Shown here: piece by piece, positions 1,834 to 39,838 of the stretch | Position numbering within the stretch: the first letter of the stretch is position 1 | How the letters are laid out: each line of letters begins with the position of its first letter | DNA from: a virus | DNA length: 39,838 bases | Reading direction: 5' to 3' (one strand) | IMG/VR virus record: IMGVR_UViG_3300031260_000020 | Coordinates: 1 to 39,838 of that record | Translations under genes and position numbers: made by a program | The notes under the pieces: generated by a model | Databases searched by the model: none | What the model was told of the DNA's origin: nothing | What the model saw: the letters and a program-made list of their open reading frames with translations, nothing else

Positions 1834-2872
1834 GTCTGTTCCCTCCTTTTTTGATCTGTTTCCATGCTATCTTCGCGAGCTTCTCCGGGTAGTCTCCCCA
1901 CGCCAGCTCGTCGTTCTCTATCGAGTTGGTTCTCGCCTTGATGGTTTGTGCAAATGTCGCGCACGCGTAGACCTGCTCCCATTGATCGAAGAGCGCCCAT
2001 GCCTGTGCAAGAGCAACCCACGATTCGCGGAGCCAGGGACACTCGGCCACAGACTTTAGCATCCACTCTATGACCTCACCCGCATCGACTGTCTTGTCTT
2101 GCTTGTGTCTCTGCATGAGAGCTTGCGAGATATACCGCATTGAGAGCGCCCGAAGTTGCTCAATGACCATGCGATTCTCGCCTTCCTCAATCTCTTTCGT
2201 GAGGTCAAGGTGTCTCTTGGCCTCTTCGATGGCCTCTTCAAACCTGTTGTGCATCATAAGTTCTCTGGCTCGAAGCCATGAAAGACGTTGATCTGTGGGA
2301 TCTTCGGAGACAGCCTTGTCGATGAGCTTCTGGTACTCTCTCGGTTTTGATAAATCCTGATAATGCCAGCTGTGAATATCCTCGCAATACACTTCGAGCG
2401 TCTCACCACTTCCGTGCCATGCCAAGATTTCGTGAATTGGAGACTCCCAGTGATAACCGTGCCGGACGTGGATCTTCCACTGGTACATTGAAGCCTTTGG
2501 TTTCGTGCACTTCTCATCGAACCAGCTGAACACGAAAGGCCAGCGAACGAGAGTGGCCTGCGGGTACATTTGAAAGATTTTCTCGACCTTCTTTTTCCAG
2601 CCCTTCTCAATCACTTCGTCGAGGTCAATACAGAGACAAACATCATAGTCTTCAGGCACGTTCTCAAGCGAGATGTTTCTGGCTACGTCGAATCGCCATG
2701 GCTCAACCTTAGCATGAAAGACATTGACCCCGCGTTCTTCGAGAAGCCGGACAGTGTCGTCAGTCGATCCGGTGTCGGTAACAAAAACTCCATCCGCTTC
2801 TTGGATAGAGTCATACCATCGAGGCACATTCTTGGCCTCGTTCTTGCATATCGCATACACTGCGACCTTCAA
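1787..2872 (-). CDS. Family-2 glycosyltransferase with helical/TPR-like C-terminal half
   Basis: N-terminus KVAVYAICKNEAKNVPRWYDSIQEADGVFVTDTGSTDDT and CIDLDE (DXD-like) are typical GT-A/GT2 motifs; 361 aa. Confidence 0.65.
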   Translation of the reverse strand: MKVAVYAICKNEAKNVPRWYDSIQEADGVFVTDTGSTDDTVRLLEERGVNVFHAKVEPWRFDVARNISLENVPEDYDVCLCIDLDEVIEKGWKKKVEKIFQMYPQATLVRWPFVFSWFDEKCTKPKASMYQWKIHVRHGYHWESPIHEILAWHGSGETLEVYCEDIHSWHYQDLSKPREYQKLIDKAVSEDPTDQRLSWLRARELMMHNRFEEAIEEAKRHLDLTKEIEEGENRMVIEQLRALSMRYISQALMQRHKQDKTVDAGEVIEWMLKSVAECPWLRESWVALAQAWALFDQWEQVYACATFAQTIKARTNSIENDELAWGDYPEKLAKIAWKQIKKGGNRLGKQAKNKRPESVKA

Positions 2873-2891
2873 GTTATCCCCTCCCTGTGTG

Positions 2892-3344
2892 TTACACGTC
2901 GTCGTTCCTTTCTATCTCGATCAGTGCAACCGTTCCGGTATAGTACGCTGTACCGTCTGGTGCCCTGAGTGCCTGATTGAATTGGCAGCGTTGTTCCCCT
3001 GCCGTGTCCGCAAAGACCACATAGAACCTGCCTTGATACTCCGTGCCGTCATCGTCTTGCATCGGGAACGTGAGAGTCATTGGGTTCGCGACGTTCGGTT
3101 TTGCCTTCAGAAAGTCGTGGAGCTTTGAGACTTCCTTCTGCGTTGCGACTCCGTTTTCATCCCAAGTCAGCAAAAAATACTGAAACGTCGAACCCTGTTC
3201 GGTTTCCCATTTGTCGACTATCTCCCCGCTTTCCGCATCTGTCTCTGTGGGAGCGTTCGGAGAATAAAGCCAGCTTTCGTAGTCTTTCGGTTTGAGCTGG
3301 ATTATCTCTCCTCCATACTCAAGACTAATCATAGAGATCACCAC
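2892..3344 (-). CDS. Hypothetical protein (tail module)
   Basis: 150-aa ORF, protein-like composition, no recognisable motif. Confidence 0.4.
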   Translation of the reverse strand: MVISMISLEYGGEIIQLKPKDYESWLYSPNAPTETDAESGEIVDKWETEQGSTFQYFLLTWDENGVATQKEVSKLHDFLKAKPNVANPMTLTFPMQDDDGTEYQGRFYVVFADTAGEQRCQFNQALRAPDGTAYYTGTVALIEIERNDDV

Positions 3345-4268: not shown

Positions 4269-4958
4269 TTATCTTAGAAATTCACTCAGTTCTTTCTCTG
4301 ATGCGTCTTTTCCATATATCCTGTGAAATTCTCTGTGACACTTAGGGCAAAGTAAAATACCGTTACTGGGTTCACACATTAGTTCTGCATAAAATCTAAC
4401 TGGTTTGATGTGGTGAACGTGCATCCTGCTTTTTGAAGTACCACACTTTTGACATCGATAATTGTCTCTTTCTCTAACTGCTTTCAGAAAGTCTTTGAAT
4501 TTCTTTGTTGCTCTAATTCGTTCAAATTTAGAAGAGATTCCGCCTTTCCAATTTGGATGTTCTGCACCTTTTCTTCTTAGCTTTTTAGCAGATTCGGCCG
4601 CCTTTTCTTTTTGCAAACAACCGCAACTTTTAGTCTTCCCATTTTCCAACATCCAATTCATAACTTCAATTTGGTTACCACACTCACAATTGCATATCGA
4701 ATAACCCGTCCTTGAAGAAGGAGCAATAACTGTGAGCCTACCGTATTTTGATCCAACTTCAAGTTCCTTCCCCAGTTTTTGTTTTAATGCACACTTTTGG
4801 CACATATGATGACCGTTTTTCACTAACCTGCTATAAGCAACGATTCTCACTTCTTCACAGACTGGGCATTGAACCTCCACCAACTTGGTTGATGATGGTT
4901 TCAACTCGCTAACTGGTATTTGTCTTCCTCTGTATTTAACAGTTTTCGTCAGTATCAC
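4269..4958 (-). CDS. HNH endonuclease with N-terminal Cys-rich zinc-finger-like region (GTG start)
   Basis: C-terminal motif YRCQKCG...HVHHIKP...NGILLCPKCH is a classic HNH signature; RBS GAAGGAG 8 nt upstream of GTG. Confidence 0.8.
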   Translation of the reverse strand: MILTKTVKYRGRQIPVSELKPSSTKLVEVQCPVCEEVRIVAYSRLVKNGHHMCQKCALKQKLGKELEVGSKYGRLTVIAPSSRTGYSICNCECGNQIEVMNWMLENGKTKSCGCLQKEKAAESAKKLRRKGAEHPNWKGGISSKFERIRATKKFKDFLKAVRERDNYRCQKCGTSKSRMHVHHIKPVRFYAELMCEPSNGILLCPKCHREFHRIYGKDASEKELSEFLR

Positions 4959-5008
4959 CGCATCATCTCCTTCAATATATTATATCACATAATGCGGTAA
5001 GACGAATG

Positions 5009-5078
5009 ATTATTCAGATTCCAATAGAAAGGTCCTGCATTTGAGCTGTTATTCCAATTGCTGCCCTGTTGAAAGCAG
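5009..5078 (-). repeat. DGR-like template repeat (TR), non-coding, between the target gene stop and the HNH gene
   Basis: 70-bp match to 5206..5275; all 13 mismatches fall at TR positions that are A on the coding (minus) strand; in the target frame TR encodes AAT/AAC-rich ...CFQQGSNWNNSSNAGPFYWNLNN. Confidence 0.75.
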
Positions 5079-5145
5079 GCTCCTTCAATCACAGACCAAA
5101 CTTGTATGTTAGTGTACCAAAATTGTTACAAACCGGCGAAAACCA

Positions 5146-6504
5146 TTAAACCGTAGGAACATAGCAGGCGCGCGCCCCGATGCTCCGATACCGATAAGCG
5201 AACGAATAAGCCAGATACCAATAGAAAGGCCCCGCATATGAGCCGTTATACCAATGGCCGCCCCGTAGAAAGCAGTTCGTACTATAACTAGACGGTGCAT
5301 AAAGATGGTCACATACGAACTTGCTTGCAGATGGAACATCTGTTTGGATACTTTTCGGCAGGAACAGACCTTTAGAGTCAGGAACCCAATAAAAATTTTT
5401 CAGGTATCCGTTTGTAACCGGAGGAGAGCACGGTATCTGAGTATAGCCGGCCAGTGTATTGTTGTATGGCCTATCGGGAGCTACATAATAACCATCAGAC
5501 TTTATGCCTCCACCGTCTGTAAACTCCCACATGTCGCCCCACCAGTTTTCCAGCCCGAATAGAGAAACAGCCTCAAGGTTTGTACCGCCTGTGTCCACTG
5601 CTCCGAGTGAAGCCGTCGCACCTGTAAGCTCTGATTCGTTCCCTGTGCCAGATGCTTTTCCTGTTATGCCCTGTCCTATCATCGCCTGCGCATTGAAATT
5701 TGCATATTTGATAAGATAGAGAAGATTAACCATTCCGGCCTGTTTCAAATCAACAAGTCCCCATCCGGTACCCCTGTTCTCTGCCATGGTGCGAAATTCC
5801 GGTAAGGTTTGATTTGATTTTGGCTTTCTTCCCGATACCGAACGCAGCATGTGGTTTGGTAAATCACCAGTAGCTATCAGTATCGGAGTCGAACCGTCTG
5901 ACGGGTCTTCTATCCATGTACTATCTGAGATTCTTTGCACTGTACCTTTATATGCTCCTAAATATATTTCTTCGAGTATTTGCCCGCCAATTACAAAGCA
6001 GTCAAATGGTACAAACCCAGGCAGCGGTTCAGGTGAAAAATACATTCTTACTTTTTCGTCTTCCGGTGAGTAATATGTGAAATAATAGGCTTTCTTGAAC
6101 CTTGATACCACATCGCCGGCCGTGCCATCTTCAATAAATCCTGGATCACCAAAAGATGCGACCCAATTTCCAGCACTATCGAGAGTCATTCTTTCTATGC
6201 TCGCAAATGGTTCGATAAGATTAAAATCGCTAGAACCCATCCCGACGGCTTTTCCTATCCTGGTAAGCACGGGAGAGCTATCACTGAGATCCCATTCCAC
6301 ACCATATGCATCATCTGGGATATTATGAGCTATCAGCTCTCCTATTCTTGCTCCAGTCAAACCGGAATGTTTGCCATAGAAATGAGGAATATAACCGCAC
6401 CGCCCTTTGTTTGTGCGATTCAGCATTCTTGTTTGAACTTCCTGCTCTGTGAGTTCTTCTATGCTGAGACTGATCTTTTTCTTCTGCCATTTTCTGTATG
6501 CCAT
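5146..6504 (-). CDS. DGR-type variable target protein; C-terminal C-type-lectin/FGE-sulfatase-like fold; putative receptor-binding/tail protein
   Basis: C-terminus ENWWGDMWEFTDGGG...FLRGGHWYNGSYAGPFYWY...RSIGARACYV resembles FGE/CLec domains of DGR variable proteins; carries the VR at its 3' end. Confidence 0.7.
   Translation of the reverse strand: MAYRKWQKKKISLSIEELTEQEVQTRMLNRTNKGRCGYIPHFYGKHSGLTGARIGELIAHNIPDDAYGVEWDLSDSSPVLTRIGKAVGMGSSDFNLIEPFASIERMTLDSAGNWVASFGDPGFIEDGTAGDVVSRFKKAYYFTYYSPEDEKVRMYFSPEPLPGFVPFDCFVIGGQILEEIYLGAYKGTVQRISDSTWIEDPSDGSTPILIATGDLPNHMLRSVSGRKPKSNQTLPEFRTMAENRGTGWGLVDLKQAGMVNLLYLIKYANFNAQAMIGQGITGKASGTGNESELTGATASLGAVDTGGTNLEAVSLFGLENWWGDMWEFTDGGGIKSDGYYVAPDRPYNNTLAGYTQIPCSPPVTNGYLKNFYWVPDSKGLFLPKSIQTDVPSASKFVCDHLYAPSSYSTNCFLRGGHWYNGSYAGPFYWYLAYSFAYRYRSIGARACYVPTV
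5206..5275 (-). repeat. DGR-like variable repeat (VR) inside the 3' end of the target gene
   Basis: Encodes ...NCFLRGGHWYNGSYAGPFYWYLAY; differs from TR only where TR has adenine; followed by a GC-only stretch GGGGCGCGCGCC (IMH-like) absent next to TR. Confidence 0.75.
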
Positions 6505-6794: not shown

Positions 6795-7355
6795 CTACGA
6801 TGTGATGTCGGTTGGGGCGCCCACAATCTGCATCCTGAGAGTAACCTGAGCTTTGTTACTGGTGCTGAAGGTCGCAGAAATCGGTCTGACATATTTATAG
6901 CTCTTTCCAAACGCCTTCGAAGTTCCAGCGTTGTTGAACAAGACTTTCATACCGATTGTGAACCAGCTAGTAGCAAGATTTGCAGATACGGTAGTGCCGT
7001 CGATACTCTTCTTCAAGTATGCAGAGCCATCATTCGTGCTAACAAGCGCGGTGGCTCCGTTGCTCTCTTTGTGATTGTTGAACCATTCGTTCAGAGCATA
7101 CTTGTTAGTTGCTACATCATCATCGTTGATGTCGACTGTTATTGAGAACTCTGGCAGATTGACAGTGTCGTCACCCTCTTCTATGCTGTTGAAAACACCT
7201 TGAGGTGCATAACCTTCGGCCGGAGCATCAACGACAGGTTCGGGCAGTTCCGGAACGTCAGCATACCCGGTGATGGTCTCGGTGAATGGTGTGGTAGGTG
7301 TACCATCAAACAGCGAGATGGTCACATGTTTCTTTCTAAGATATGGTCTTCCCAT
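6795..7355 (-). CDS. Putative major tail (tube) protein
   Basis: 186 aa, follows head-tail joining genes; assigned by position and size only. Confidence 0.4.
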   Translation of the reverse strand: MGRPYLRKKHVTISLFDGTPTTPFTETITGYADVPELPEPVVDAPAEGYAPQGVFNSIEEGDDTVNLPEFSITVDINDDDVATNKYALNEWFNNHKESNGATALVSTNDGSAYLKKSIDGTTVSANLATSWFTIGMKVLFNNAGTSKAFGKSYKYVRPISATFSTSNKAQVTLRMQIVGAPTDITS

Positions 7356-7373
7356 GAGAAGTTCCTCCTTTGT

Positions 7374-7787
7374 TTACTCGATAAATTCATAATACACAGT
7401 GATGGCTCGCACTGCGTAGTTGCTTAATGTTGATTGCTGAGAGAGTTCATATCTGGAGATCTGAAGCTCTCCAAGCTTAACTGTTGGTTTTCCACCTACA
7501 TAATCCATGACAGGAATGCTACTTGAGTCTTCGATTGCCGCTGTGAGAGTGCCGATGATAGTATCAAGCGTACTTACGCTCTTTGAATGTACGAGTAGTT
7601 GAGTAAAGTCGTACTGATACGCTTTTCTATCATCCTGTGCCCTCCCCATCGACGTTTGAAGTTCGATGAAGCTATCCTCAGTCATATTCTCATTCTTTCG
7701 ATCTATGTACCATGTCCCCGAGCTGTACTTTCCTGAAAAGTACATTCTCAGAGACGCTTGAATGTTTCGGTAGAGAGCGGCTGTCAT
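7374..7787 (-). CDS. Putative tail terminator / tail completion protein
   Basis: 137-aa ORF in the canonical position between neck and tail tube genes. Confidence 0.35.
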   Translation of the reverse strand: MTAALYRNIQASLRMYFSGKYSSGTWYIDRKNENMTEDSFIELQTSMGRAQDDRKAYQYDFTQLLVHSKSVSTLDTIIGTLTAAIEDSSSIPVMDYVGGKPTVKLGELQISRYELSQQSTLSNYAVRAITVYYEFIE

Positions 7788-16101: not shown

Positions 16102-16389
16102 CTATCTCAATTTTTCTAATGCACTGCCAGAGTTCGTACATGATTGCTCCTCATCAAGTTCCTTCTCCTGGTTCTCCCTCATCTGTGCGAAGAGTCTGAG
16201 ACACCGCCATGAGCAGAACTCGGCTCCAGACTCCAAGATTTTCCAGTGATGATTCATAGTCTCTACTTTTCCGCAATAGTCGCACCGATGAACCAGCAAA
16301 ATGACCTCCAAATAAAAGGGAGCCCGAAGGCTCCCTGGTGTGGAAGGAAGAAGGTAATGGAAGCGGGCCGAGAAGTCGAATCTCGACAA
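16102..16389 (-). CDS. Hypothetical Cys-containing small protein
   Basis: 95-aa ORF; true start may be internal. Confidence 0.25.
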   Translation of the reverse strand: MSRFDFSARFHYLLPSTPGSLRAPFYLEVILLVHRCDYCGKVETMNHHWKILESGAEFCSWRCLRLFAQMRENQEKELDEEQSCTNSGSALEKLR

Positions 16390-16485
16390 TCGCCTTATGA
16401 GAGCGATCTGCGTCCGCCGCTGCCCGCTTTGAAAAACGGGGCAGTTTCATTGAAGCCCCGCCGACCGAGAAACCCCGATCCATAT

Positions 16486-16907: not shown

Positions 16908-16999
16908 TGGGCGCAGCGAGAATCGAACTCGCAAGCAGCACACGATGCTGCTGTAATCTCTCGATTACTACGGTATCGGCCTGGCATACCATTGCGCCC
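16908..16999 (-). tRNA. tRNA-like gene with long variable arm (type II; possibly Ser, anticodon uncertain)
   Basis: Perfect 7-bp acceptor stem GGGCGCA/TGCGCCC, T-arm GCGAG-TTCGATT-CTCGC, extra-arm hairpin AGCAGCA-tcgtg-TGCTGCT; anticodon arm not canonical by hand folding. Confidence 0.45.
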
Positions 17000-17139: not shown

Positions 17140-17670
17140 TCAAGTCCCTTCTTTGTAGATTTTAAGATAGTCCATAGTCAATTCAAATAATCTTTCTACA
17201 TCAACCCTCACATTGCTTCCATCATCCACCAAGAGATCTTCTCCTGTGTCTTGGAAGATTCGCTTGATGTTTCTCCTCACGCCTTCGTAGTCATCAATAA
17301 GTTGGCGGGCAAACCAGATAAATGCCTTCCTAGTATTAGGAGTTAAATTATCACTTGCCCTAATTATTCTATGGCAAAAATAATGACAGTTCGGGCAAAC
17401 AAGCAGGAAATTGTCAAACGTATTCCCTCCGCCTTGAGAATATGGTATGAAGTGATGTGTTTGAAGCATTGTTGAAAATTCTCTTGGAGGTACAAATCCA
17501 CAAATGTCGCATTGTGCTGTTCGAGTTTTCAATCTAAGACTTTTGTAATGTCGGATACTCTTCACGTATATTTTCCTATTTCTTTCGTCTTCCTTTGGTA
17601 TTTCTACGTGTTTGCCTATTTTAATCGACAGAAGCAAATCTTCTACACTCATCCAACAACCTCCTCGCAA
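17140..17670 (-). CDS. HNH endonuclease (terminase-associated)
   Basis: CDICGF...HHFIPYSQGGGNTFDNFLLVCPNCH HNH motif; located upstream of the terminase genes. Confidence 0.8.
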   Translation of the reverse strand: MRGGCWMSVEDLLLSIKIGKHVEIPKEDERNRKIYVKSIRHYKSLRLKTRTAQCDICGFVPPREFSTMLQTHHFIPYSQGGGNTFDNFLLVCPNCHYFCHRIIRASDNLTPNTRKAFIWFARQLIDDYEGVRRNIKRIFQDTGEDLLVDDGSNVRVDVERLFELTMDYLKIYKEGT

Positions 17671-29240: not shown

Positions 29241-29561
29241 CTATCTAACGAACAATGCTTTTGCTATTTCGGCTTCAGGAGCGTCAGGCTCAAGACCGGC
29301 GGCTGCTGAATCGTCCTTGAAGAGTTCATCGACAAACTTGTCAATGGTTATGTTGATCGCGATGATGACGATTCTTTCGAGAAGATATTCGAGAAAGTCG
29401 ATCTTGAAGTCGATTGCCTTCTCGACCAGTTCGGCCAGCTTCTTCTTAACCATTTCTTTTACTTCTTCGTGGTTGAACCCTGCATCTTTTAACAGTTTTG
29501 CGCCCTGTTTCAAAATGTTCAGTATCTTTTCAAACATCTTTATTCCTCCTTCATAAGCCAC
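29241..29561 (-). CDS. Hypothetical protein
   Basis: 106-aa ORF downstream of the endolysin. Confidence 0.3.
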   Translation of the reverse strand: MAYEGGIKMFEKILNILKQGAKLLKDAGFNHEEVKEMVKKKLAELVEKAIDFKIDFLEYLLERIVIIAINITIDKFVDELFKDDSAAAGLEPDAPEAEIAKALFVR

Positions 29562-30074
29562 TCAACGGCTTTTGGATTTTGCCTCCCAGTCAGGGAACGA
29601 TTCGTAAATGCTTATTAGTTTCTTTGCATAGTCTGGATCAGTCGCATAACCGGCTTTGTGGATCGCGTCGAAATATAGCAACGGCTCGTGTCTCAAGAGC
29701 CACGCTCTGTGGTATCTCTCGTCCTGAGAGATCTTGACAATGTAGGCCAGCATCGATTGTAGCGGGGAAGTGAAGGTTTCGAATGTATGAGTCTCTATCA
29801 CCCACTCACCGTTGAATTCAGTAGTCGTTGCTTCTATCGACCCCGGAAGCCAGGGAACGTCTTTGATACCGAACAAATTGTTTGCCACAATGTGTCTTCC
29901 CCATCCGGTCTCAAGTGCAGCCTGCACGAGCAAGACCACAGGCGGGAAGTCACAGGCGAGACCAACTAGGATAGCGTCGTCTCGGTATTTTTCTATGAAA
30001 TCCATCTTCACACTCATCGGCACATCAACCTCCATCGTTGAAACTTGAGCGGCAAGGAGAGTCATGAGAAGCAC
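29562..30074 (-). CDS. Endolysin: mannosyl-glycoprotein endo-beta-N-acetylglucosaminidase domain protein
   Basis: ...LLVQAALETGWGRHIVANNLFGIK... matches the glucosaminidase (FlgJ-type) core motif; hydrophobic N-terminus. Confidence 0.7.
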   Translation of the reverse strand: MLLMTLLAAQVSTMEVDVPMSVKMDFIEKYRDDAILVGLACDFPPVVLLVQAALETGWGRHIVANNLFGIKDVPWLPGSIEATTTEFNGEWVIETHTFETFTSPLQSMLAYIVKISQDERYHRAWLLRHEPLLYFDAIHKAGYATDPDYAKKLISIYESFPDWEAKSKSR

Positions 30075-30086
30075 TACGAAAAAACT

Positions 30087-30380
30087 TCATCCCCCTCCTC
30101 CACCAAACAAGCTCATCACCCAAGTCATTACCGCGCTGGAAGAGACGATAGCAACAATCAGCTTCCAAAGAAGCCGCCCGTTCCTTGCATCTATCGCCTT
30201 CTCTACTTTTTCTTCTACCAGGCCGTTGTGCAAGTCGTCTGAAAGCGTATCAATCTTGTCGCCTAGCTTGCCAACGTCTTTTTGAACATCGTCCATCTTT
30301 GTGAGCAGGACTGTTCTATCAGTTTTCAACTGCTCAATATCGTGTGCATATTTGCATTCTTCGCCCATAGCGCACCTCAC
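30087..30380 (-). CDS. Hypothetical protein with C-terminal transmembrane segment (holin-like?)
   Basis: C-terminus LLWKLIVAIVSSSAVMTWVMSLFGGGGG. Confidence 0.3.
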   Translation of the reverse strand: MRCAMGEECKYAHDIEQLKTDRTVLLTKMDDVQKDVGKLGDKIDTLSDDLHNGLVEEKVEKAIDARNGRLLWKLIVAIVSSSAVMTWVMSLFGGGGG

Positions 30381-31189
30381 ATCGATCTTTCCAAGATTTC
30401 TATACCTTTGTATGTACCATCGAACCTCATGAGATACTCAAGTTGCGGACTCGGTCTCATGAATGACTCTTGCGCATAGTTTGAGTAGTTCTGAAATGCA
30501 GAGAGAATCACGTTTCGAACCTCTCTGGCATACACAGTCTTGCGTTGCGGGTCGTAGACGAGACGGGATGAAGGTATCAGGTTCGGATCATGCACATGCC
30601 CCATGATACTGAAGTCGCAATTCTCCATGATGTCTCCCAAAGCAGCGGCCTTGTTCGCCTTCGCACCCTTCGTGCGTCCCCCGCCGTATCCATGAGCGAT
30701 GAGACCTACGTAACTATTCATCCTGCTGTACGACTTTGATACTTGGTTTTTCCTGTACTGGCCGACTCTCAGATGAAGAACCCCAAGACCTCTCACGAAA
30801 GGCACTTCGAGAATGTTTGCCAGAGCTTCGGCCATATTGAAGCCTGTTTTCTTCTCCATGCCTCTTTCGTGATTCCCATCCATGATGAGCAGAATGTTGT
30901 CTCGAATCGGTTTGAAGAGATTTGCCACAGTCACGAGTGCAACGTTGAGATCGTCTCCTTGCTGTTCCTTGAGAAGCCACGAGAAGAAGAGCTTGTCAAA
31001 CGTGTCGCCTATCAACAATGTTAGATAGTTGTTCTCTTTGATTTCGGCTATTTTTCGTTCTATGAGGCTGTGGTTTGAATACCTTGAATCCCAGTGCAAG
31101 TCTCCGAGAGGCAGGAGATAGATTTCCTTTGCTTCCGGGAATGAGCGTTGAACCACTTTGACATCGACGGGAGTATGAACGTGTGACAT
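30377..31189 (-). CDS. Calcineurin-like metallophosphoesterase
   Basis: Motifs GDLHWD, IGDTFD, DGNHE and GHVHD in canonical order. Confidence 0.75.
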   Translation of the reverse strand: MSHVHTPVDVKVVQRSFPEAKEIYLLPLGDLHWDSRYSNHSLIERKIAEIKENNYLTLLIGDTFDKLFFSWLLKEQQGDDLNVALVTVANLFKPIRDNILLIMDGNHERGMEKKTGFNMAEALANILEVPFVRGLGVLHLRVGQYRKNQVSKSYSRMNSYVGLIAHGYGGGRTKGAKANKAAALGDIMENCDFSIMGHVHDPNLIPSSRLVYDPQRKTVYAREVRNVILSAFQNYSNYAQESFMRPSPQLEYLMRFDGTYKGIEILERSM

Positions 31190-31192
31190 TCA

Positions 31193-31417
31193 TTAAAGCC
31201 CACCCAAGTATTTCAGAATTAGCATCACGAGAAAAGCACCCGAAGCAGTAGCTACGAAGTCCAGGAACTCAGCCGTTCCATGTTCAATATCCCAGAACTC
31301 TTTGATGAGGCCGACCAAACCGGCAACCAGAAAGCCAAGTAATGGTATCTTCGTGAGATATCCGACCACCACAGAAACGAGCGCTCCGGCCATAAAGTGC
31401 AGAATTTTGTCTGTCAT
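31193..31417 (-). CDS. Putative holin (small membrane protein with two hydrophobic helices)
   Basis: 74 aa: HFMAGALVSVVVGYL and LGFLVAGLVGLI plus ASGAFLVMLILKYL. Confidence 0.4.
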   Translation of the reverse strand: MTDKILHFMAGALVSVVVGYLTKIPLLGFLVAGLVGLIKEFWDIEHGTAEFLDFVATASGAFLVMLILKYLGGL

Positions 31418-31430
31418 AGTTTACCTCCGA

Positions 31431-31904
31431 TTATTCAAGTTCAATCACAAATGATGGCTCCCAAGCAGGCGGTGAGCAATCTGACAACTCAATCGCCTGA
31501 AGTTCCCAGTAGTTTGCATCCCATTGGTTGCCTGTTTTTATTGTTGAATACCAATAGAAAATCGGGTATGTCAGAGAGAGGATCGGGCCGTAGATAGCGT
31601 GCTGAACGTAGTGCACATATTCATGATTGAGAACATGGTTGAGAACGGTTTCCTGCTCATGATGGTAGATATCCGGGCTGACTACGATGAAAGGACCAAA
31701 GTTGAATGCCCCATATGGCGTGTTCGCAACGACCATGATCGGATCGAAGAACCATGAATAGGCCCATGACACCGCATATACGGTTATGACGGTTCCAACG
31801 GCGTATTTGACGGCTGGCGGGATCTCCTCAAAGAACTCCACGATATTTGCAATAGACACAGAACTGATGACAATTACAAGCACGATTGCAAGCAGTTTTT
31901 TCAT
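31431..31904 (-). CDS. Membrane-anchored protein with HExxH zinc-metallopeptidase-like motif
   Basis: N-terminal TM MKKLLAIVLVIVISSVSI; motif LNHEYVHYVQH; GGAGGT RBS before ATG. Confidence 0.4.
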   Translation of the reverse strand: MKKLLAIVLVIVISSVSIANIVEFFEEIPPAVKYAVGTVITVYAVSWAYSWFFDPIMVVANTPYGAFNFGPFIVVSPDIYHHEQETVLNHVLNHEYVHYVQHAIYGPILSLTYPIFYWYSTIKTGNQWDANYWELQAIELSDCSPPAWEPSFVIELE

Positions 31905-31918
31905 TTTTGACCTCCATG

Positions 31919-31940
31919 AAAAAAAGACCCCGAAGGGTCT
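31919..31940 (-). terminator. Rho-independent terminator between tail and lysis modules
   Basis: Minus strand AGACCC-ttcg-GGGTCT followed by TTTTTTT. Confidence 0.6.
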
Positions 31941-31943
31941 CTC

Positions 31944-32120
31944 TTATGTGTGATGTTGTTCCTTAGATTTTTTTTCTTCCAATTCGGCAATTCTTTGCTC
32001 TTTTGCTTTATACTCCGCAACTGCTTGCTGCATTGCTTTGTCAAGACTTTCAAGCGCAAGGTTTGTCGTTCCAATGATTGCCATTTTCGCGTTTCCAAAT
32101 GCACGAATGAGTTCTTCCAT
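31944..32120 (-). CDS. Small coiled-coil ORF (58 aa) downstream of the tail fibre gene
   Basis: AGGAGG RBS then ATG; MEELIRAFGNAKMAIIGTTNLALESLDKAMQQAVAEYKAKEQRIAELEEKKSKEQHHT; stop immediately precedes the terminator. Confidence 0.3.
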   Translation of the reverse strand: MEELIRAFGNAKMAIIGTTNLALESLDKAMQQAVAEYKAKEQRIAELEEKKSKEQHHT

Positions 32121-32131
32121 TTTTTACCTCC

Positions 32132-35100
32132 TTATAATGTATATCTATCTAGTGCTACCCAGTATGAGTATGTGCCACTATCATGCGGAGTCTTGAAATA
32201 CAGAACGTACTGCGGCCCAACACCAGCTGTTTTCAACCAAATCCAGATATTTGAGTTCGGGCAATCTTCCGCATCTGTCCAATCCGTCCAGCTCGAAGGA
32301 TATTTGTTTGTTGCGGTTGTTTTTGTGCCGTACCACGTGGGAATACCGAACTTTATGTAATCAGCGAATGAAACAAAACCATTTATGTCGAAGCTCCCGT
32401 TGTCATAGTAGTACCATGACTGGTACGGGGTCGTGCTTCCTGCTTTCCAGATCATTTCTACATAATCAGAGTAGCTGGTGGCGTTCGCATGAGTCGCAAC
32501 TGAAAAAAGGGCTTCCCCTTCCAACGTTTCTCCGTTGTAGAAAAGCGATTCAAGAGTCACGTAGGCCGTGTTCTCATTAGTAATGGTTCCATATCCAAAA
32601 TTGAGAAACTTCTTGCCTGTCGAGGCCCATTGCATGGCTACCCAGCCTGCATTGGAACTGTAACCGCCGTCAACCATATCAATCTTTCCATCTTCAAAGT
32701 GGATTGCGTTATCTCCATACCCGAGCACTATGTCGCCCTTGATGTTTAGCTTCTCCCCATTCCAAGCGAGATAGTTCGGGTCAATCCCTGCGCCAACTAC
32801 TGACAATTTCCATCCAGCAGCATCAAAGAGTTTTATGCTGCCGATACTCGCATAACTTGCGGTAACCGCTAGAATTTTCAGGCGATAATAGAAGTAAGCT
32901 CCTGGAGAGGATATGCTGAAATCGGTCGCCTTCCATCCAGTCCAAGCGGAAATGCCTGACTGAGTATCGAGATCTGTCCAGTTAGTTCCGTCATTCGAAC
33001 CTTGAATTACCCACCCAGTAGCACAGTTCGAGGAACTCGCACTATATATGTTATAGCTGGCTAGAGTCTTTCTGATAGGCAATTTGATCTGCGACCAGTT
33101 GTTTACATAGTGATTGATTACTGATGACGTACTTTCTCTGAAAAGGTACCACGCATTGCTTCCACCCCAGTTGTTTGAAACCACATATCCGCTGGGCGTA
33201 GTGTTTGAAGTCATGAATGGATGAATCCTCTCTCCGAGACTCTTACCCATCCAAAGTCCTTCATCCATGAATAGCCCGGAATTGATCCGGAAATACCCAT
33301 TCTCAGAGACATAGATTCCATCACCAGTCAACCCAGCAGGGCCAACCCCTTTTCCTATCTGAATGTTAGAACCGACAACGATTTTCCTACCAACAGACAA
33401 ATCGAGCGTAGCTTCTAACTTATTAGCCGTTACTGAACCAGCGAGGATTTTGCCTGCGGTTATAGCATCCGTCGCTATATGGTTTGCTACTATCTTTCCA
33501 AACCAAGCACTATTGCCCACTATCTCGTCAACATCCATATGAAGAGTTTTAATTTCACCCGCTAAAATCATTCTTGCAATAATGGTATCATCAGTAATTT
33601 GACCGCTAGCAATATAACCAGCAATATCTGAAAAGTCAAGATTAGTAAGTCTGGTATCTAAGTCTGAAAGCTCACTCGAGATACTCGAACAGGTTACCCC
33701 AGTCGAAGTGGTCACCCAAGAAGTCGATTCGTTCCCATAGATGTCATATGCTTTCACCCGGTATTTGTAGTACGTCCCGGCAGTTACGTTTTTATCTATA
33801 AATTCCTTTGATTGCACAATCGCGATTTCTACCCAGCTAGAATATGGAGAAGGAGCACGTTCAACTACATAATGCGAGAAATCAGAAGGCTTTGAATGAT
33901 TCCAGTACACATATACTATATCAAAACCTCCCGCAGCAGAGATGCTTGTCAGGTTCGCGGGAATAGTTGTATCTTGAGCGCTCGTAATACTTTGAGAAGA
34001 TGTCCAGGAGGACTCAAAACCCTCTATGTCTTTTGCCTTTACTTTCACATAGACGGTTACTCCAGCCTTGACCTCTATAACGAGACTCGTTTCTGAAGTA
34101 AGCCCCGAATTATACCAGTTGACTCCGTCATAACTCCAGGCAACTTCATATCCCTTTATATCGGTTTCAGTGTTCGCAGACCAAGTGGCCTTTACATACG
34201 TCTTGCCATCAGAGAAGAATGTTGAAAGGGCAAGCCCTGTCGGTGTTGCAGGAGCCGAACCATCACCGAACGCCGGTTCATATGGAATGTTCGTACCCGG
34301 CCCAGTCGTCGATCCGGGAGGTGGCGTATACACAAATGCAGATGCTCTGTCGCTTCTGAGGGTGACTGTCATATTTCTGTTCCGATAGTCTATATCTATT
34401 TCTCGCACCCATGCTCTGTGTGAAAGTCCAGTCGAAGCGTCCACAATGTTTACCTTATTTCCAACACTCCAGCCCAGACCTAATGAGAAGTCTGCAAGCG
34501 GCACAACGATTTCAAACTTGTCATTGCCGTTTTCATAGAGCCACTTTGCAAGACTCGAAGCCCATACCCTGGAAGATATGAGATCGTTTGATACTTCTCT
34601 CTCAACATTGAACGATCCGGCATCATAGATCACTTCGAGATAGTTCTCGACAACCGGCTTGCCTTCAATCACGAGCTTTGTAACGTTCTTGTCTGCCCCG
34701 GCACTGTTGTCTATTTGAAGATACATGAAATCAGGGTACTTCAGAACGCCGGTATCGAAGTTCGCATCGTACACGGTCTGATTGAGAGTCAAGCCAGAGT
34801 CAAACTCTTTGGCAGCGTTGACCGTAGCATAGTCATCAACGTCGATCGCGGGAGAGTCAAACTTTGCACGCCATTGATCGTCAGCGATAACGTTGCCGTT
34901 CTCGTCTTTGCCGGTTGGTAGCCCATCAGGCGTGACAGTACCGGCCCAAGTAAAGATAGGCTCTTTCGAAGTCTTGACACTGCGATTCTTTGACTTAACT
35001 ATGACTCGCTCGCCCTCGCTAGGCAGCCATTGCAGTGAGTCTATATCTTTCAACTTCGAGACTGTGATCGTGCCGACTGTGGACGTTGACCAGCTGGCCG

Positions 35101-35668
35101 CAAACCCTGCCCGAAATTGGAGGACTCCCGACTCGTCGAACCACATAGACCCGCCGCACGAATCGACGATCTCCTGGAGCCTGTCTGTGAGTTTGTCTTT
35201 GATGGAGTATAGCGCATAGCCCACGATTGCCTGAGTCGTGCCAACTCCGGTAGCAACAACTATACTGTCAAGATTGCGGCTGCCTAAGCCTATCCCACCG
35301 CAAGTCTCCACGAGCCAGATCAGTATTGCATCGGCCGTCGAACCGATGAACATTTTGTCCTGACACTTGAGCTTTTGAAGTTGTTTCATTTTGTCAAACG
35401 CCTGTACATGAACAGTCCTGCCGTTTCTCGTGAGAGTTGGCTTTTCTGCGTAGCCTGTGAACTGCTTGACTGAATTTATCCATACTTCCACGAGCTGACC
35501 TTCGATGTCAAGGTTTGAGATAGTGTACGCAAGATTTGTGTTATCAATATCGAAGCTGCACTCGTTCGGAGAAATCTTTCCATGTAATACGTCATTTTTA
35601 TGGACTATCGGCCCAGAAACTATCCGGGCCGAAATATCCACGCTGTTGAGGTTGACCTGAAAGCTCAT
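32132..35668 (-). CDS. Tail fibre / host-specificity protein (about 1178 aa from internal ATG overlapping the upstream stop)
   Basis: Large beta-rich protein directly after the tape measure and distal tail genes; fibronectin-III-like repeats (...TWSANTETDIKGYEVAWSYDGVNWYNSG...; ...YYKYRVKAYDIYGNES...). Confidence 0.6.
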   Translation of the reverse strand: MSFQVNLNSVDISARIVSGPIVHKNDVLHGKISPNECSFDIDNTNLAYTISNLDIEGQLVEVWINSVKQFTGYAEKPTLTRNGRTVHVQAFDKMKQLQKLKCQDKMFIGSTADAILIWLVETCGGIGLGSRNLDSIVVATGVGTTQAIVGYALYSIKDKLTDRLQEIVDSCGGSMWFDESGVLQFRAGFAASWSTSTVGTITVSKLKDIDSLQWLPSEGERVIVKSKNRSVKTSKEPIFTWAGTVTPDGLPTGKDENGNVIADDQWRAKFDSPAIDVDDYATVNAAKEFDSGLTLNQTVYDANFDTGVLKYPDFMYLQIDNSAGADKNVTKLVIEGKPVVENYLEVIYDAGSFNVEREVSNDLISSRVWASSLAKWLYENGNDKFEIVVPLADFSLGLGWSVGNKVNIVDASTGLSHRAWVREIDIDYRNRNMTVTLRSDRASAFVYTPPPGSTTGPGTNIPYEPAFGDGSAPATPTGLALSTFFSDGKTYVKATWSANTETDIKGYEVAWSYDGVNWYNSGLTSETSLVIEVKAGVTVYVKVKAKDIEGFESSWTSSQSITSAQDTTIPANLTSISAAGGFDIVYVYWNHSKPSDFSHYVVERAPSPYSSWVEIAIVQSKEFIDKNVTAGTYYKYRVKAYDIYGNESTSWVTTSTGVTCSSISSELSDLDTRLTNLDFSDIAGYIASGQITDDTIIARMILAGEIKTLHMDVDEIVGNSAWFGKIVANHIATDAITAGKILAGSVTANKLEATLDLSVGRKIVVGSNIQIGKGVGPAGLTGDGIYVSENGYFRINSGLFMDEGLWMGKSLGERIHPFMTSNTTPSGYVVSNNWGGSNAWYLFRESTSSVINHYVNNWSQIKLPIRKTLASYNIYSASSSNCATGWVIQGSNDGTNWTDLDTQSGISAWTGWKATDFSISSPGAYFYYRLKILAVTASYASIGSIKLFDAAGWKLSVVGAGIDPNYLAWNGEKLNIKGDIVLGYGDNAIHFEDGKIDMVDGGYSSNAGWVAMQWASTGKKFLNFGYGTITNENTAYVTLESLFYNGETLEGEALFSVATHANATSYSDYVEMIWKAGSTTPYQSWYYYDNGSFDINGFVSFADYIKFGIPTWYGTKTTATNKYPSSWTDWTDAEDCPNSNIWIWLKTAGVGPQYVLYFKTPHDSGTYSYWVALDRYTL

Positions 35669-36012
35669 GTAGTCACCTCCAGAAACTCGAGCGTTTCTTC
35701 GTACATTGCCACACCCTTGATCCACTTCTCTTTGTACTCGTACGTGCCGATCAGCTTCACATTTACGGCAGACTCGGAGTCTATCTTCAGAGTAGCCGCG
35801 GTCTGCCTGTATGATTCCAGCGTGGTTCTGTCCGACTCGGTGAAGAAGAGAGGTATTTTGTATCTCTTCACCGTGCCGTCACAATAGTGATATGCCGAAC
35901 CGTCTGGTGCAATGTTCACGACCTCGACAGGCTCGACCACTCTGGTTCTGTATGGGTGTTTATATTTCTTCGGATAAACTGTGAAACTGAGAGAACCTAT
36001 GTAAACTGTCAT
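35665..36012 (-). CDS. Hypothetical tail protein (distal tail region)
   Basis: 115-aa ORF between the tape measure and tail fibre genes, translationally coupled (ATGA overlap). Confidence 0.3.
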   Translation of the reverse strand: MTVYIGSLSFTVYPKKYKHPYRTRVVEPVEVVNIAPDGSAYHYCDGTVKRYKIPLFFTESDRTTLESYRQTAATLKIDSESAVNVKLIGTYEYKEKWIKGVAMYEETLEFLEVTT

Positions 36013-39000: not shown

Positions 39001-39838
39001 TAATCCCGATGACTGCAAGTATACCTAGTGCGTTGTCTATCCAGGACTGATCGAAGTTGTCAACGAATCCACTCACAAGGAACTTCGCTGGGATCTCGAA
39101 TATCTCTTGCGCAAGCTCGACGCCAAGATCAAATTTCTTCGAGATTGATTCAGTCTCTCCGATTTCTTTGATTGTTGCGCTCATCTTCTCAAGTGCCGAG
39201 TTCGTAGTATCAAGATATTTCTGAGAGTCACCACCCAGAAGCCCCGTGAACCCAGCTCCAATCGTGGCAATACTGTTATAGACTTCTTCAGCTAGAAGCT
39301 GAATAGTATTAAGCAAGCCCTTTGTATCTTCGACTTCTGACTTGAATTTCTCAGTCAAGCCAAGCGTCAAGATAGATGCGGTGATTCCAATCACAGGACT
39401 CCCGGTTGCAAGGGTAATAAGGCCACCCCAAGTAATGACGCTGAGAAGTTTTCCTTTGAAAGTCTCAGCTTCATTCTCTCCGAACACTATCTTCGCCGGT
39501 ATCTGAAGAATGTTTGAGCCAAGATCCACAAGCCCCTGCATGAATTCTTTAACATCTGTGGCTTTGGTGAGTTCTTCCCATGAAGCCTTGACGTCACCGA
39601 ACGCCTTCTTTGTATTCTCTCCAAAGTCATCAACATTGATGCCCATACTCTTGAGAACACCATTAATAGCTTCACCAGCTTGTGATACTGTGCCTCTAAT
39701 ACCCAGCCAGTCATGATCCCACGCAACACGAAGAGTGTATAGACCCGCAATCAAGAGTGTGGGCCAAGAAAATATTGTCTTGAACACGCCCACGATCAGG
39801 CCGCCCCCGGTAACAACTATCTGTGAGAGCAAGCTCCA
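36017..39838 (-). CDS. Tail tape measure protein, C-terminal 1271 aa; N-terminus continues at 1..999 across the junction; contains a lytic-transglycosylase-like segment and a Gly-rich linker
   Basis: Frame open to the window edge; segment LAYAESKYLIGAKGGEGRGAFQFEPIG...AWNRGFGN resembles SLT-domain motifs (near 37800-38100); GGGGGSGG linker near 38400; largest gene, after the chaperone frameshift site. Confidence 0.8.
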   Translation of the reverse strand, partial: WSLLSQIVVTGGGLIVGVFKTIFSWPTLLIAGLYTLRVAWDHDWLGIRGTVSQAGEAINGVLKSMGINVDDFGENTKKAFGDVKASWEELTKATDVKEFMQGLVDLGSNILQIPAKIVFGENEAETFKGKLLSVITWGGLITLATGSPVIGITASILTLGLTEKFKSEVEDTKGLLNTIQLLAEEVYNSIATIGAGFTGLLGGDSQKYLDTTNSALEKMSATIKEIGETESISKKFDLGVELAQEIFEIPAKFLVSGFVDNFDQSWIDNALGILAVIGITKFLGGSWRLAVGLALISDVILGDDVSSNGLVNSAVKALEAGAATWMITKSGTLGLGVSLVVAGWETGKEFGNWLVDAGIGDSWDQWLKDTLGDFYTDTIAGLKTETFLDQLNASGIYIGMTILAGLKWPFDKMLDFGAWVWEAVKNTALTIYEAGLEIGNQLFEGIKSFFSFGWLQELLGLGVKKPSGGGGGGSGGFENFVPAGGGESIRFKKESMAYPELEGMYAMAGFPISGMEIRTTPLSKEITDMIDRMIATAKQLDAYSGISSDPTTIITPAMEKLTFDLINALNQSLLDPTVVASLAYAESKYLIGAKGGEGRGAFQFEPIGIEQAKKWFPTNWDYETAATDTVYSTLAAEKTLDWLMDSFGSLRDAIIAWNRGFGNTQNWIAGGEDLSTLPDATKILLTNFMVEFENLINGDWSSLNDELLAHIAEVADAVNFFVENTPEVIAKSFVGDPKTFDVMGTAAEEQAVTQKETVITLENLFVEAQAANSYLNAIANRLSGIRDLLWQRLPVTAGMASGGYISGAGSPTDDLIPAMLSDGEFVVNAKSTEKWLPFLKAINAQGLSAGGLAGLKKQIKGFATGTATQIDVGSVGGGQLTWWDIILNTLTSAVGDYAETAKKDFGMIKNALGDLLKTIGLDIDAPFTELDKLTSQFQELEKPSDDVFEGFFLSIAETRDRLSSISDVFGETEIKRISRQMSFLDSAMSDLEKQFTNGEIELGEYTERVVYLRNISRDLGNSLNDLKKKIERSSIVGDSSEIFKVDENTGELVSVFANLRPGMEGLTDVMGNLATAGELFAVGLLNQVVNLEAINMLLNPITTILTGVMEILGPIINLLKPLGDALISIGRVFASTFNLFGAGLLILQPFFKALGWLGATISFVADQLVLFVDGIFVWLSGLPFIGGLFSPLLSEDQRANMGRSISERMEDYELPQSSTGQTFQAGSSQHITNNYHFEFRGNDILTEDDESARRFADLIYKNLRDRGVELQVG
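39698..39838. repeat. Second copy of the 141-bp terminal repeat
   Basis: Identical to 1..141; implies a unit genome length of about 39697 bp. Confidence 0.9.

Follow-up and report, generated by a model that had tools for sequence, protein, structure and literature searches.

Why does a phage lysis cassette encode a metallophosphoesterase (MPE) and a membrane-associated protein with an HExxH motif? Phage lysis is usually described as the work of a holin and an endolysin, to which spanins or LysB are added where needed. In the window, by which we mean the whole 39,838-nucleotide stretch of viral DNA analyzed here, the two proteins are encoded between the tail fibre gene and the endolysin gene, and their ORFs lie where the initial annotation had placed them. 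Both are embedded in the lysis region, as it had stated, and both families recur beside the lysis genes of distant phages. We propose that the interval opens the late lysis cassette of a ~39.7-kb siphovirus and supplies its first three genes. Within it, the HExxH protein would act as a membrane-surface peptidase that assists or times lysis and the MPE would act as a late phosphodiesterase. This is the explanation that best fits the locus as a whole, and we give it an even chance of being right. The finding is descriptive: gene order, motifs, folds, conservation, synteny and the presence or absence of genes are observed, and from these we infer topology, ligands, substrates, timing and partnership.

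Organization of the lysis region

The phage genome is complete, and nucleotides 1-141 are identical to the final 141 nucleotides. The genome encodes terminase, portal, major capsid, tape-measure, RecE/RecT and DnaD-like proteins. No integrase or lysogeny gene occurs among the ORFs scanned in the genome, and the phage is apparently a virulent siphovirus. Every gene of the interval, that is, those for the tail fibre, the 58-aa protein, the HExxH protein, the 74-aa protein, the MPE, the XhlA-like protein and the endolysin, is carried by the minus strand.

The upstream boundary of the region is formed by a tail fibre or distal tail protein of 1197 aa (positions 32132..35725, minus strand), which matches a virion structural protein family (phrog_32822, 9.7e-40) and a tail protein family (phrog_17517, 2.5e-14) and gives weak F5/8 type C and fn3 matches in Pfam. 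Directly after the fibre gene comes a 58-aa coiled-coil ORF (31944..32120, minus strand) with an AAGGAGG ribosome-binding site 5' of its ATG. This ORF has no family match, and its homologues occupy the same position, at 60-94% identity, in the related loci L003/L023, L018/L025, L024 and L093. An intrinsic-terminator-like hairpin (31918..31940, minus strand; AGACCC-UUCG-GGGUCU followed by T8) then separates the tail genes from the HExxH gene. The hairpin was read from the sequence, and its palindromic stem was also reported by a scan. L024 has a hairpin in the same place, but a non-homologous one, and L023 has none at the tail/HExxH junction, where the genes overlap. The HExxH gene comes first after the terminator hairpin and heads the lysis cassette both here and in two distant lineages.

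At the other end of the cassette, the endolysin (29562..30074, minus strand) consists of a single Glucosaminidase domain (PF01832, 1.9e-22; phrog_3513 endolysin, 8.9e-34) and has no signal peptide. A transmembrane (TM) segment in this protein was considered and rejected, the hydrophobic stretch at residues 33-55 being an internal helix of the catalytic domain and not a signal. The last gene of the cassette is a 106-aa ORF (29241..29561, minus strand) that is 90-99% identical in L024 and L025 and has no family match. A strong terminator follows it (29216-29195, minus strand; nine pairs, seven of them GC, and a T-run). At the DNA level, the region has no match among 50,697 phage records.

In the PBSX/SPbeta-type cassettes of Bacillus phages (XepA-XhlA-XhlB-XlyA), the stretch from the tail-fibre genes to the endolysin contains accessory genes of unclear role and the XhlA coiled-coil/TM protein. 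The window shares this arrangement of accessory genes and a coiled-coil/TM protein between fibre and endolysin; unlike those cassettes, it has neither a XepA nor a XhlB homologue that could be detected.

Small membrane proteins of the cassette

The initial annotation had counted two small holin-like proteins in the region. Both exist, carry TM segments and occupy a cassette position adjacent to the endolysin, but neither has a significant match to a holin family in Pfam, PHROG or NCBIfam. The first, of 74 aa (31193..31417, minus strand), contains three hydrophobic segments (residues 2-22, ~24-42 and 49-74). Its homologues directly follow the HExxH gene in L016, L017, L018, L021/L026, L022, L023 and L024, and the 74-aa gene is a near-constant companion of the HExxH gene. 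Similarity of the 74-aa protein to YfiM is weak (E 0.049), as is that of its L019 relative to VanZ (E 0.003).

The second protein (30087..30380, minus strand) has 97 aa when read from a GTG and combines a coiled coil with a C-terminal TM segment at residues 68-93. The more likely start is an ATG at 30368 that has a GAGGTG site ahead of it and gives 93 aa. The 97-aa protein is 30% identical (E 4e-12) to gp43 of Marinitoga phage MPV1 ('Holin-like protein, hemolysin, phrog_1193'), and MPV1 is its sole match in the 50,697 phage records. Pfam XhlA (PF10779) does not match the window protein, and the L019 equivalent scores 24.6 bits against a threshold of 34.7. Our label "XhlA-like" therefore denotes a putative relationship, drawn from the 30% identity to an annotated gene and from shared architecture and position, not from a Pfam match.

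A rare zincin-like HExxH protein

The HExxH protein (157 aa; 31431..31904, minus strand) is predicted to be a minimal zincin-like protein that is exported or membrane-tethered. Its HEYVH motif occupies residues 94-98. The motif alone means little, since the window, read in six frames (79,672 positions), contains HExxH five times. Across 27 family members with a mean column identity of 19%, E95 never varies, and conservation at H94, H98, Q101 and E134 reaches 90% or more. The structural model (pLDDT 90) resembles zincin peptidases over a predicted zincin-like domain of ~100 aa, in which E134 is the likely third zinc ligand.

To which peptidase family does the protein belong? No Pfam family scores above threshold. 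SprT-like (PF10263) reaches 18.4 bits against a threshold of 25.6, and the third His of HExxHxxxxxH is missing; the candidate H102, at +4, is not conserved and is Tyr or Arg in some homologues. The metzincin pattern HExxHxxGxxH is likewise absent, given that the sequence reads HEYVHYVQHA and has no Gly at +3 past the second His. The HExxHxxQ spelling resembles the motif of eCIS_core/DUF4157 (PF13699); membership of that family is not supported, its profile giving hits in 3 of the 27 members with a best E of 0.12. The family comprises only 29 clusters among 1.84 billion representatives. A tblastn search in phages and a search of PDB sequences returned nothing, no relatives were found in 185,579 species genomes, and NCBIfam yielded nothing for either this protein or the MPE. 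A ~100-aa catalytic unit, with a three-stranded sheet, the HExxH helix and a next helix bearing a conserved Glu, appears in the model to be common to the HExxH protein, to the minigluzincins (proabylysin and projannalysin) and to other minimal zincins (SprT/Spartan, the ArdC protease domain, the VgrG2b effector domain and M48/M56). A putative metallopeptidase had been annotated here from the motif, to be abandoned if profile searches did not confirm it. That test went half against the assignment, with no zincin Pfam family above threshold, whereas the conserved residues and the predicted fold back the motif. Sequence comparison and structural modelling together suggest that the HExxH protein is a member of a rare, undescribed small zincin-like family.

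Topology and proposed role of the HExxH protein

On which side of the membrane would the catalytic domain lie? The N-terminus of the protein contains a strong signal-peptide-like helix 1 and a weakly hydrophobic helix 2, with mean Kyte-Doolittle values of 2.77 and 1.16, respectively. A lipoprotein-type signal with a lipobox-like Cys is present in 15 of 22 close homologues; in the window copy, Ser replaces this Cys and the site reads SIA|N. Variants that lack helix 1 start exactly at the conserved 'IEFFxxxP', the segment expected after signal-peptide cleavage. The TM anchor of the initial annotation would more probably be a signal peptide of the Sec or lipoprotein type with a weakly hydrophobic helix behind it.

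We propose that a Sec-type signal exports the 157-aa protein, which would remain at the membrane as a minimal gluzincin-type zinc peptidase. Two of the zinc ligands, as well as the catalytic Glu, would come from the HExxH helix, and the zinc site would be completed by E134 of the helix that follows. At the membrane surface, the enzyme would cleave an envelope or lysis-machinery protein or peptide, probably together with the 74-aa membrane protein, and would in this way assist or time lysis.

The topology is ambiguous, given that the catalytic domain would be cytoplasmic if helix 2 spans the membrane. The N terminus would then lie outside after cleavage and the C terminus inside, and the protein could set lysis timing as an HtpX/BlaR1-like juxtamembrane protease. 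Such a protease would process a membrane protein, whether its 74-aa partner, a host protein, or else a holin or antiholin. We regard this arrangement as unlikely. Helix 2 is only weakly hydrophobic (Kyte-Doolittle ~0.9-1.4), and the lipobox-like Cys of 15 of the 22 close homologues argues against a cytoplasmic domain, bacterial lipoproteins normally being wholly extracytoplasmic. Furthermore, the single-helix variants carry Lys/Arg before helix 2 and an acidic residue after it, a pattern that favours an N-in, C-out orientation.

The genomic context of distant family members bears on the proposed surface peptidase. In L019 and L097 (23-25% identity), the HExxH gene lies one or two genes upstream of an XhlA-/holin-like gene and an SLT endolysin; a clear lysis context was not seen for the distant homologue L094, and no lysis gene was identifiable in L096. 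A functional analogue is available in Listeria, where a secreted zinc protease derived from a phage, together with its partner protein, sensitizes the bacterium to phage lysis (PMC8235301). Like the window protein, this Mtz/Tim pair involves a phage-associated HExxH zinc protease that is membrane-bound or secreted and is encoded beside a small partner protein. Mtz/Tim differs in belonging to the metzincin clan, in having a TIMP-like lipoprotein as the partner and in residing in a cI/cro-like remnant locus, and its sequence is unrelated to the HExxH protein of the window. Apart from this analogue, our literature search returned no paper in which a lysis cassette includes an MPE or an HExxH protein.

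The metallophosphoesterase

The MPE (270 aa; 30377..31189, minus strand) is encoded between the 74-aa and XhlA-like genes. The initial annotation had identified a calcineurin-like phosphoesterase from the motifs GDLHWD (residue 29), GDTFD (61), GNHE (105) and GHVH (197) and had named PF00149 as the profile by which to check it. The identification is borne out: the motifs are present and invariant, and the Metallophos profile scores above its cut-off, although marginally (22.7 versus 21.5 bits) and over the N-terminal half only. In addition, phrog_7339 covers the full length of the protein (2.5e-26). D30, H32, D62, N106, H107, H166, H198 and H200 show no substitution in the homologues compared (16-18 sequences, with identities as low as 23% in the set of 18). 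The protein has all five superfamily motifs (DxH, GD, GNH[DE], H and GHxH) and the beta-sandwich MPE fold; no signal peptide or TM segment was found in it. Judged by its motifs, the 270-aa protein is a catalytically intact calcineurin-like two-metal MPE. The signature set of PPP Ser/Thr phosphatases of the lambda PP type (GDxHG, GDxVDRG and GNHE) is not present, and PADLOC defence-system models give no meaningful match.

By sequence and model comparison, the MPE is closest to the nuclease branch of the superfamily (PolD-DP1 and Mre11/SbcD), with LpxH close behind, and the top true MPE match of its family profile among PDB sequences is DP1. Identity to Mre11/SbcD and PolD DP1 is 15-21%. Unlike these proteins, the window MPE has no recognized capping or DNA-binding domain, and it sits in a lysis cassette, whereas they belong to a replication or repair module. 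No Rad50/SbcC-type ATPase partner is evident, since the genome's ORF list, which is partially annotated, holds no ORF of more than 600 aa besides the tape-measure and fibre proteins. The UDP-2,3-diacylglucosamine pyrophosphatase LpxH is 15% identical, and its lipid-binding lid was not identified in the window MPE.

The PHROG 7339 'DNA repair exonuclease' family, represented by gp42 of Marinitoga phage MPV1 (Marpi_0340), shares the five metal-binding motifs, the fold and a length of ~255-270 aa. MPV1 gp42 also shares the place of the window MPE between the tail fibre gene and the XhlA-like and wall-hydrolase genes. The window MPE is only 23-27% identical to the Marinitoga proteins, and the name 'exonuclease' is itself an annotation by similarity. 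Group-1 Thermotogota proviruses have few genes in common, and 'DNA repair exonuclease Marpi_0340' of MPV1 is recorded as one of them (preprint, doi 10.1101/2020.11.07.368316).

Neighbourhoods and proposed role of the MPE

The MPE gene adjoins a coiled-coil/TM gene and a wall hydrolase gene in the window clade. The same neighbourhood occurs in L019 (28% identity, SLT lysin) and in the Marinitoga phages MPV1 and MCV2 (23-26% identity), and it is kept in reversed order in a Mesoaciditoga/Athalassotoga-like clade. The MPEs of all these groups cluster together in a rough NJ tree, which suggests that the window MPE belongs to a subfamily that travels with an XhlA-like lysis gene. An inseparable unit of the MPE and the 97-aa XhlA-like gene is weakened as an idea by L026, in which the MPE is followed by another coiled-coil/TM family; in L023, which lacks an MPE, that family directly follows the 74-aa gene. 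A lysis link of the whole MPE family is rejected by the downstream neighbours of 58 non-redundant loci (53 viral contigs), which are mostly terminase, portal, helicase, HNH, methylase and HTH genes. The wider relatives (25-30% identity) adjoin terminase, helicase, methylase and RusA genes, not lysis genes. At the position that it occupies in the window, the MPE is absent from the relatives L003/L004/L005/L023, L022, L017 and L020. A core lysis function for the MPE does not stand: it is an accessory insert, missing from close relatives whose cassette is otherwise identical.

We propose that the 270-aa MPE is cytoplasmic, is expressed with the lysis genes and hydrolyzes a phosphodiester substrate, most likely nucleic acid, at the end of infection, and that it would be dispensable for the core lysis pathway. 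Alternatively, the MPE might itself be an accessory lysis enzyme that goes to the membrane, or is let out through it, along with the XhlA-like protein and cuts an envelope phosphodiester or pyrophosphate. The mycobacteriophage enzyme LysB, which removes an extra envelope layer, provides an analogy. Targets of such an activity would be an envelope lipid, precursor or polymer, cleaved in the manner of LpxH, sphingomyelinase or glycerophosphodiesterase. This alternative appears doubtful to us in view of the dispensability of the MPE in close relatives, the DNA-metabolism neighbourhoods of the wider family and the nucleases that are its nearest relatives by sequence and fold; moreover, neither a lipid-binding cap nor a membrane segment is recognized.

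A more far-reaching proposal joins all four genes. The HExxH and 74-aa proteins would form a new Sec-exported proteolytic lysis module that sets off or finishes lysis by cutting a protein of the envelope or of the lysis machinery, and the MPE and the XhlA-like protein would form a second, phosphodiester-cleaving accessory for unusual (Thermotogota-like) envelopes. We consider this speculative and distinctly unlikely; if it were true, lysis here would involve enzymes of two classes that have not previously been listed as lysis proteins.

Could the MPE instead serve counter-defence? It might degrade the cyclic or linear nucleotide signals of CBASS, Pycsar, type III CRISPR or Thoeris, the fibre-lysis junction being merely tolerant of insertions. 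We find this very improbable. We found no link between the MPE and anti-signalling enzymes already known, counter-defence genes are not usually located in late operons, and the place beside the XhlA-like gene is kept over ~25% identity, beyond what a neutral insertion site would lead one to expect. The host-takeover role that the initial annotation had offered is likewise unsupported.

Irrespective of these alternatives, two extra catalytic proteins recur in the lysis cassettes of phages that share only ~25% identity and whose wall hydrolases are non-homologous (a glucosaminidase, SLT or a C92-like peptidase). The MPE is an enzyme of a known kind; the small zincin-like HExxH family, as delineated by conservation and modelling, appears to be undescribed, and its definition would close a gap in how proteases are classified. 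Action of either enzyme on the envelope would mean a new enzymatic step in lysis and a possible source of new enzymes directed at cell walls or membranes. A late nuclease role for the MPE, as we favour, or a signal-degrading one would account for a gene that is among the few shared across Thermotogota viruses.

Fibre exchange and host range

Relative to the window, a single block has been exchanged in L024, running from the fibre C-terminus through the 58-aa gene to the HExxH gene: DNA homology ends at 34110 and resumes at 31428, three bases beyond the HExxH stop codon. Although this block swap would fit an HExxH protein that co-evolves with the receptor-binding end of the fibre as a superinfection-exclusion or progeny-protection factor like T5 Llp or Cor, we reject such a role as extremely improbable because HExxH identity and fibre C-terminus identity are uncorrelated (Spearman -0.08, 36 locus pairs), and because 40-86% HExxH identity persists between phages with unrelated fibre ends and lysogeny genes were not found among the ORFs scanned.

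Which host does the phage infect? The named organisms with relatives are limited to Mesoaciditoga lauensis, an Athalassotoga MAG and the Marinitoga phages, and Thermotogota as the host is only a lead. The MPE matches five MAG contigs whose phylum assignments disagree with one another (WWE3, Bacteroidales, Izemoplasmatales and Phycisphaerae), and the portal protein is of the SPP1 type, closest to those of Bacillus and Staphylococcus phages.

Organization of the late cassette

Two predicted, catalytically intact metalloenzymes, a calcineurin-like metallophosphoesterase (MPE) and a zincin-like protein with an HExxH motif, are encoded in a late cassette that is bounded by terminator-like hairpins. 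Each enzyme family recurs beside lysis genes in deeply diverged lineages. The first and last 141 nt of the window are 100% identical (1-141 versus 39698-39838), an assembly overlap indicating that this tailed-phage genome is complete, ~39.7 kb long and circular or circularly permuted; the tape-measure gene spans the end-to-start junction. Every recognized gene lies on the minus strand. PHROG scans identified head and packaging genes (terminase large subunit, SPP1-type portal, SPP1 gp7-like minor head protein and major head protein), genes for a tail protein and the tape-measure protein, DNA-metabolism genes (RecE/RecT, DnaD-like replication organizer, DNA methyltransferase and dUTPase), HNH endonucleases and a glycosyltransferase, and found neither an integrase nor a repressor among the ORFs scanned. 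The 361-residue glycosyltransferase (1787-2872, minus strand; phrog_13126, 5e-80) and a 229-residue HNH endonuclease (4269-4958, minus strand) lie among structural and tail genes, and a further HNH gene occupies 17140-17670. Two tRNA genes, tRNA-Met(CAT) and tRNA-Ser(CGA), are found at 16358-16428 and 16908-16999 on the minus strand. A DNA-level search of the region against 50,697 phage records returned zero matches.

On the minus strand, the 1197-residue tail fibre (35725-32132; phrog_32822, phrog_17517) is followed by a 58-residue coiled-coil ORF (32120-31944), the 157-residue HExxH protein (31904-31431; start preceded by a GGAGG site), a 74-residue membrane protein (31417-31193), the 270-residue MPE (31189-30377), a coiled-coil protein with a C-terminal TM segment (30380-30087; 97 residues from GTG, more probably 93 from an ATG behind a GAGGTG site), a 170-residue Glucosaminidase endolysin (30074-29562; PF01832, 1.9e-22) and a 106-residue ORF (29561-29241). 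A strong terminator (29216-29195, minus strand) ends the cassette. Both metalloenzyme genes lie in the lysis region, as the initial annotation had observed, and its coordinates and motif positions were confirmed (GDLHWD at residue 29, GDTFD at 61, GNHE at 105 and GHVH at 197 of MPE; HEYVH at 94 of the HExxH protein). A terminator-like hairpin (AGACCC-UUCG-GGGUCU, then T8; 31940-31918, minus strand) separates the 58-residue gene from the HExxH gene and may attenuate transcription from the tail into the lysis genes. Among loci on related contigs, L024 has a non-homologous hairpin at the same place (5262-5293); L023 has none, and its two genes overlap.

The two small membrane proteins, initially described as holin-like, are putative holins at most. 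The 74-residue protein has three hydrophobic segments and only weak similarity to YfiM, and its relative in L019 is weakly similar to VanZ. The 97-residue protein shows XhlA architecture, does not match PF10779, and is homologous to a holin-like gene of Marinitoga phage MPV1 (30% identity, E 4e-12), its only match in the phage collection. In a close relative, L025 (= L018), the gene of this family is just 36% identical to that of the window, and the Glucosaminidase endolysin (6976-7560) is lengthened at its N terminus by a hydrophobic stretch (signal or SAR-like) that is absent from the window's enzyme.

The metallophosphoesterase

MPE is, by sequence, a new member of a known phage family, and its function is a predicted one. 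The calcineurin-like assignment was upheld: Pfam Metallophos is barely passed (22.7 bits, cut-off 21.5), in the N-terminal half alone, and the metal ligands D30, H32, D62, N106, H107, H166, H198 and H200 are all invariant in alignments down to 23% identity, in which the Gly-rich basic loop HGYGGGRTKGAKANK is likewise conserved. The full length matches phrog_7339 (2.5e-26), a family annotated as 'DNA repair exonuclease', and the top true MPE match for the family profile among PDB sequences is DP1. Given the invariant ligands and nuclease-side relatives, MPE is predicted to be an active phosphodiesterase that uses two metals and stands closest to the nuclease branch. The fold by itself does not define the substrate. 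Nucleic acid appears most likely because of the closest relatives; an LpxH-like action on an envelope or lipid substrate is less likely, and the degradation of nucleotide signals less likely still.

MPE matches in annotated phages are confined to the Marinitoga phages MPV1, MCV1 and MCV2, one Bacillus phage and one Moorella phage. The MPV1 and MCV2 copies are preceded by the fibre gene and a small ORF, and genes for a 'holin-like protein, hemolysin' and for a lytic transglycosylase follow immediately. This position was previously recorded in Thermotogota viruses under a different name, and a preprint (doi 10.1101/2020.11.07.368316) reports the MPV1 gene as one of few conserved across Group-1 Thermotogota proviruses. 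A clade at 39-43% identity, to which Mesoaciditoga lauensis and an Athalassotoga MAG each contribute a protein, has a coiled coil and TM gene immediately upstream of MPE; in L013 and L091, a C92-like peptidase precedes that coiled coil and TM gene. In L019, the HExxH gene is followed by MPE (334 residues, 28% identity), an XhlA-like gene (phrog_1193; 24.6 bits for Pfam XhlA) and an SLT lysin that bears a signal peptide. The lysis-adjacent lineages cluster in one group of a rough neighbour-joining tree.

Two observations run counter to this pattern. Members of the wider family (25-30% identity) adjoin terminase, portal, helicase, HNH, methylase and RusA genes, and MPE is missing from close relatives of the window's phage (L003/L004/L005/L023, L022, L017 and L020), in which the order is fibre, HExxH, 74-residue gene, coiled coil and TM gene, and lysin. 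This makes MPE an accessory gene, placed as an insertion between the 74-residue gene and the coiled coil and TM gene, and at this site it occurs with either of two unrelated coiled coil and TM families. We propose that MPE, which has neither a signal peptide nor a TM segment, would be produced in the cytoplasm together with the XhlA-like protein and would hydrolyse a phosphodiester substrate late, at the end of infection.

Downstream of MPE, the 40%-identity clade carries a very acidic ORF of 66-72 residues (L013 8354-8563; L091 5140-5340; L010 8934-9152), which overlaps the MPE end in L013 and L091, has no counterpart in the window and recalls nuclease inhibitors or DNA mimics. Just upstream of the L019 cassette, a 335-residue reverse-transcriptase-like ORF (4515-5522), called by eye from the translation, could be part of a diversity-generating retroelement near tail genes.

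The HExxH protein

The HExxH family is rare: a 5.8-billion-sequence collection gave 40 matches, all metagenomic, and 1.84 billion representatives gave 29 clusters, with no member in 185,579 species genomes and no match among annotated phages or PDB sequences. Across 27 aligned members (mean column identity 19%), E95 is invariant, conservation of H94, H98, Q101 and E134 is 90% or more, and the family motif is HExxHxxQ...GP...NxxE. The proposal of a putative metallopeptidase is thus borne out by conserved motif residues but not by a Pfam family match, as nothing exceeds threshold (SprT-like, 18.4 bits, cut-off 25.6) and the 27 members give only scattered weak matches to eCIS_core, M78, M48, M50 and DUF5700. 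The variability of H102 rules out the SprT and metzincin forms of the motif. Likenesses to M1 aminopeptidases, CapP, BepA, Spartan and BlaR1, and to SprT, IrrE and M48-like viral proteins in BFVD, have modest scores and are consistent with a minimal gluzincin. This small, undescribed family appears to use a known catalytic design in an unusual way, being exported and linked to lysis.

Helix 1 is strongly hydrophobic (Kyte-Doolittle mean 2.77) and ends with small residues at -3 and -1 (SIA|N); in 15 of 22 close homologues its end is lipobox-like ([VIA][IGS][GAS]C), with Ser at the Cys place in the window's protein. Shorter family members without helix 1 start exactly at the conserved 'IEFFxxxP' segment, the would-be mature N terminus. 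With a mean of 1.16, helix 2 is weakly hydrophobic, and Gly, Ala, Ser, Thr and aromatic residues are abundant in it. These features somewhat favour export, with an extracytoplasmic putative catalytic domain, over the cytoplasmic alternative; we infer that a lipid anchor, a signal anchor or helix 2 holds the protein at the membrane. If helix 2 spans the membrane, the catalytic domain would instead be cytoplasmic, and a cytoplasm-facing regulatory protease is a less likely reading.

In the window's relatives, the HExxH gene always lies behind the fibre and a small ORF. A homologue of the 74-residue protein is present in nine of ten loci; it immediately follows the HExxH gene in eight of them, whereas in L019 it lies four genes downstream. 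The distant members in L019 and L097 (23% identity) retain the lysis context; in L097, the order is HExxH, an 86-residue holin/hemolysin-like protein, an SLT endolysin and a weak Rz-like match. No lysis gene was recognised in L096, and a lysis context is not clear in L094. We propose that the exported HExxH protein would be pre-positioned at the membrane and cleave a protein of the envelope or of the lysis machinery, with the 74-residue protein as its probable partner. A functional precedent comes from Listeria, in which a phage-derived metzincin and a partner protein make cells more sensitive to phage lysis (PMC8235301). Of the roles suggested initially for the two enzymes, that of accessory lysis factors is plausible and agrees with gene position, function being a matter of inference; no support for host takeover was found for either.

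In the recombinant L024, the fibre C-terminus, the 58-residue gene and the HExxH gene were swapped as a single block: DNA homology to the window (87%) continues until 34110, is lost over the block and returns at 91% from 31428, a sharp mosaic boundary three bases past the HExxH stop codon. This swap suggested a receptor-matched role, which was rejected because HExxH identity and fibre-end identity are uncorrelated (Spearman -0.08, 36 locus pairs). In L094, two tandem HExxH-family paralogues (2279-3087) lie downstream of a PhoH-like ATPase identified by eye only; in the first, the motif has degenerated to VEYGK, with loss of the catalytic His residues.
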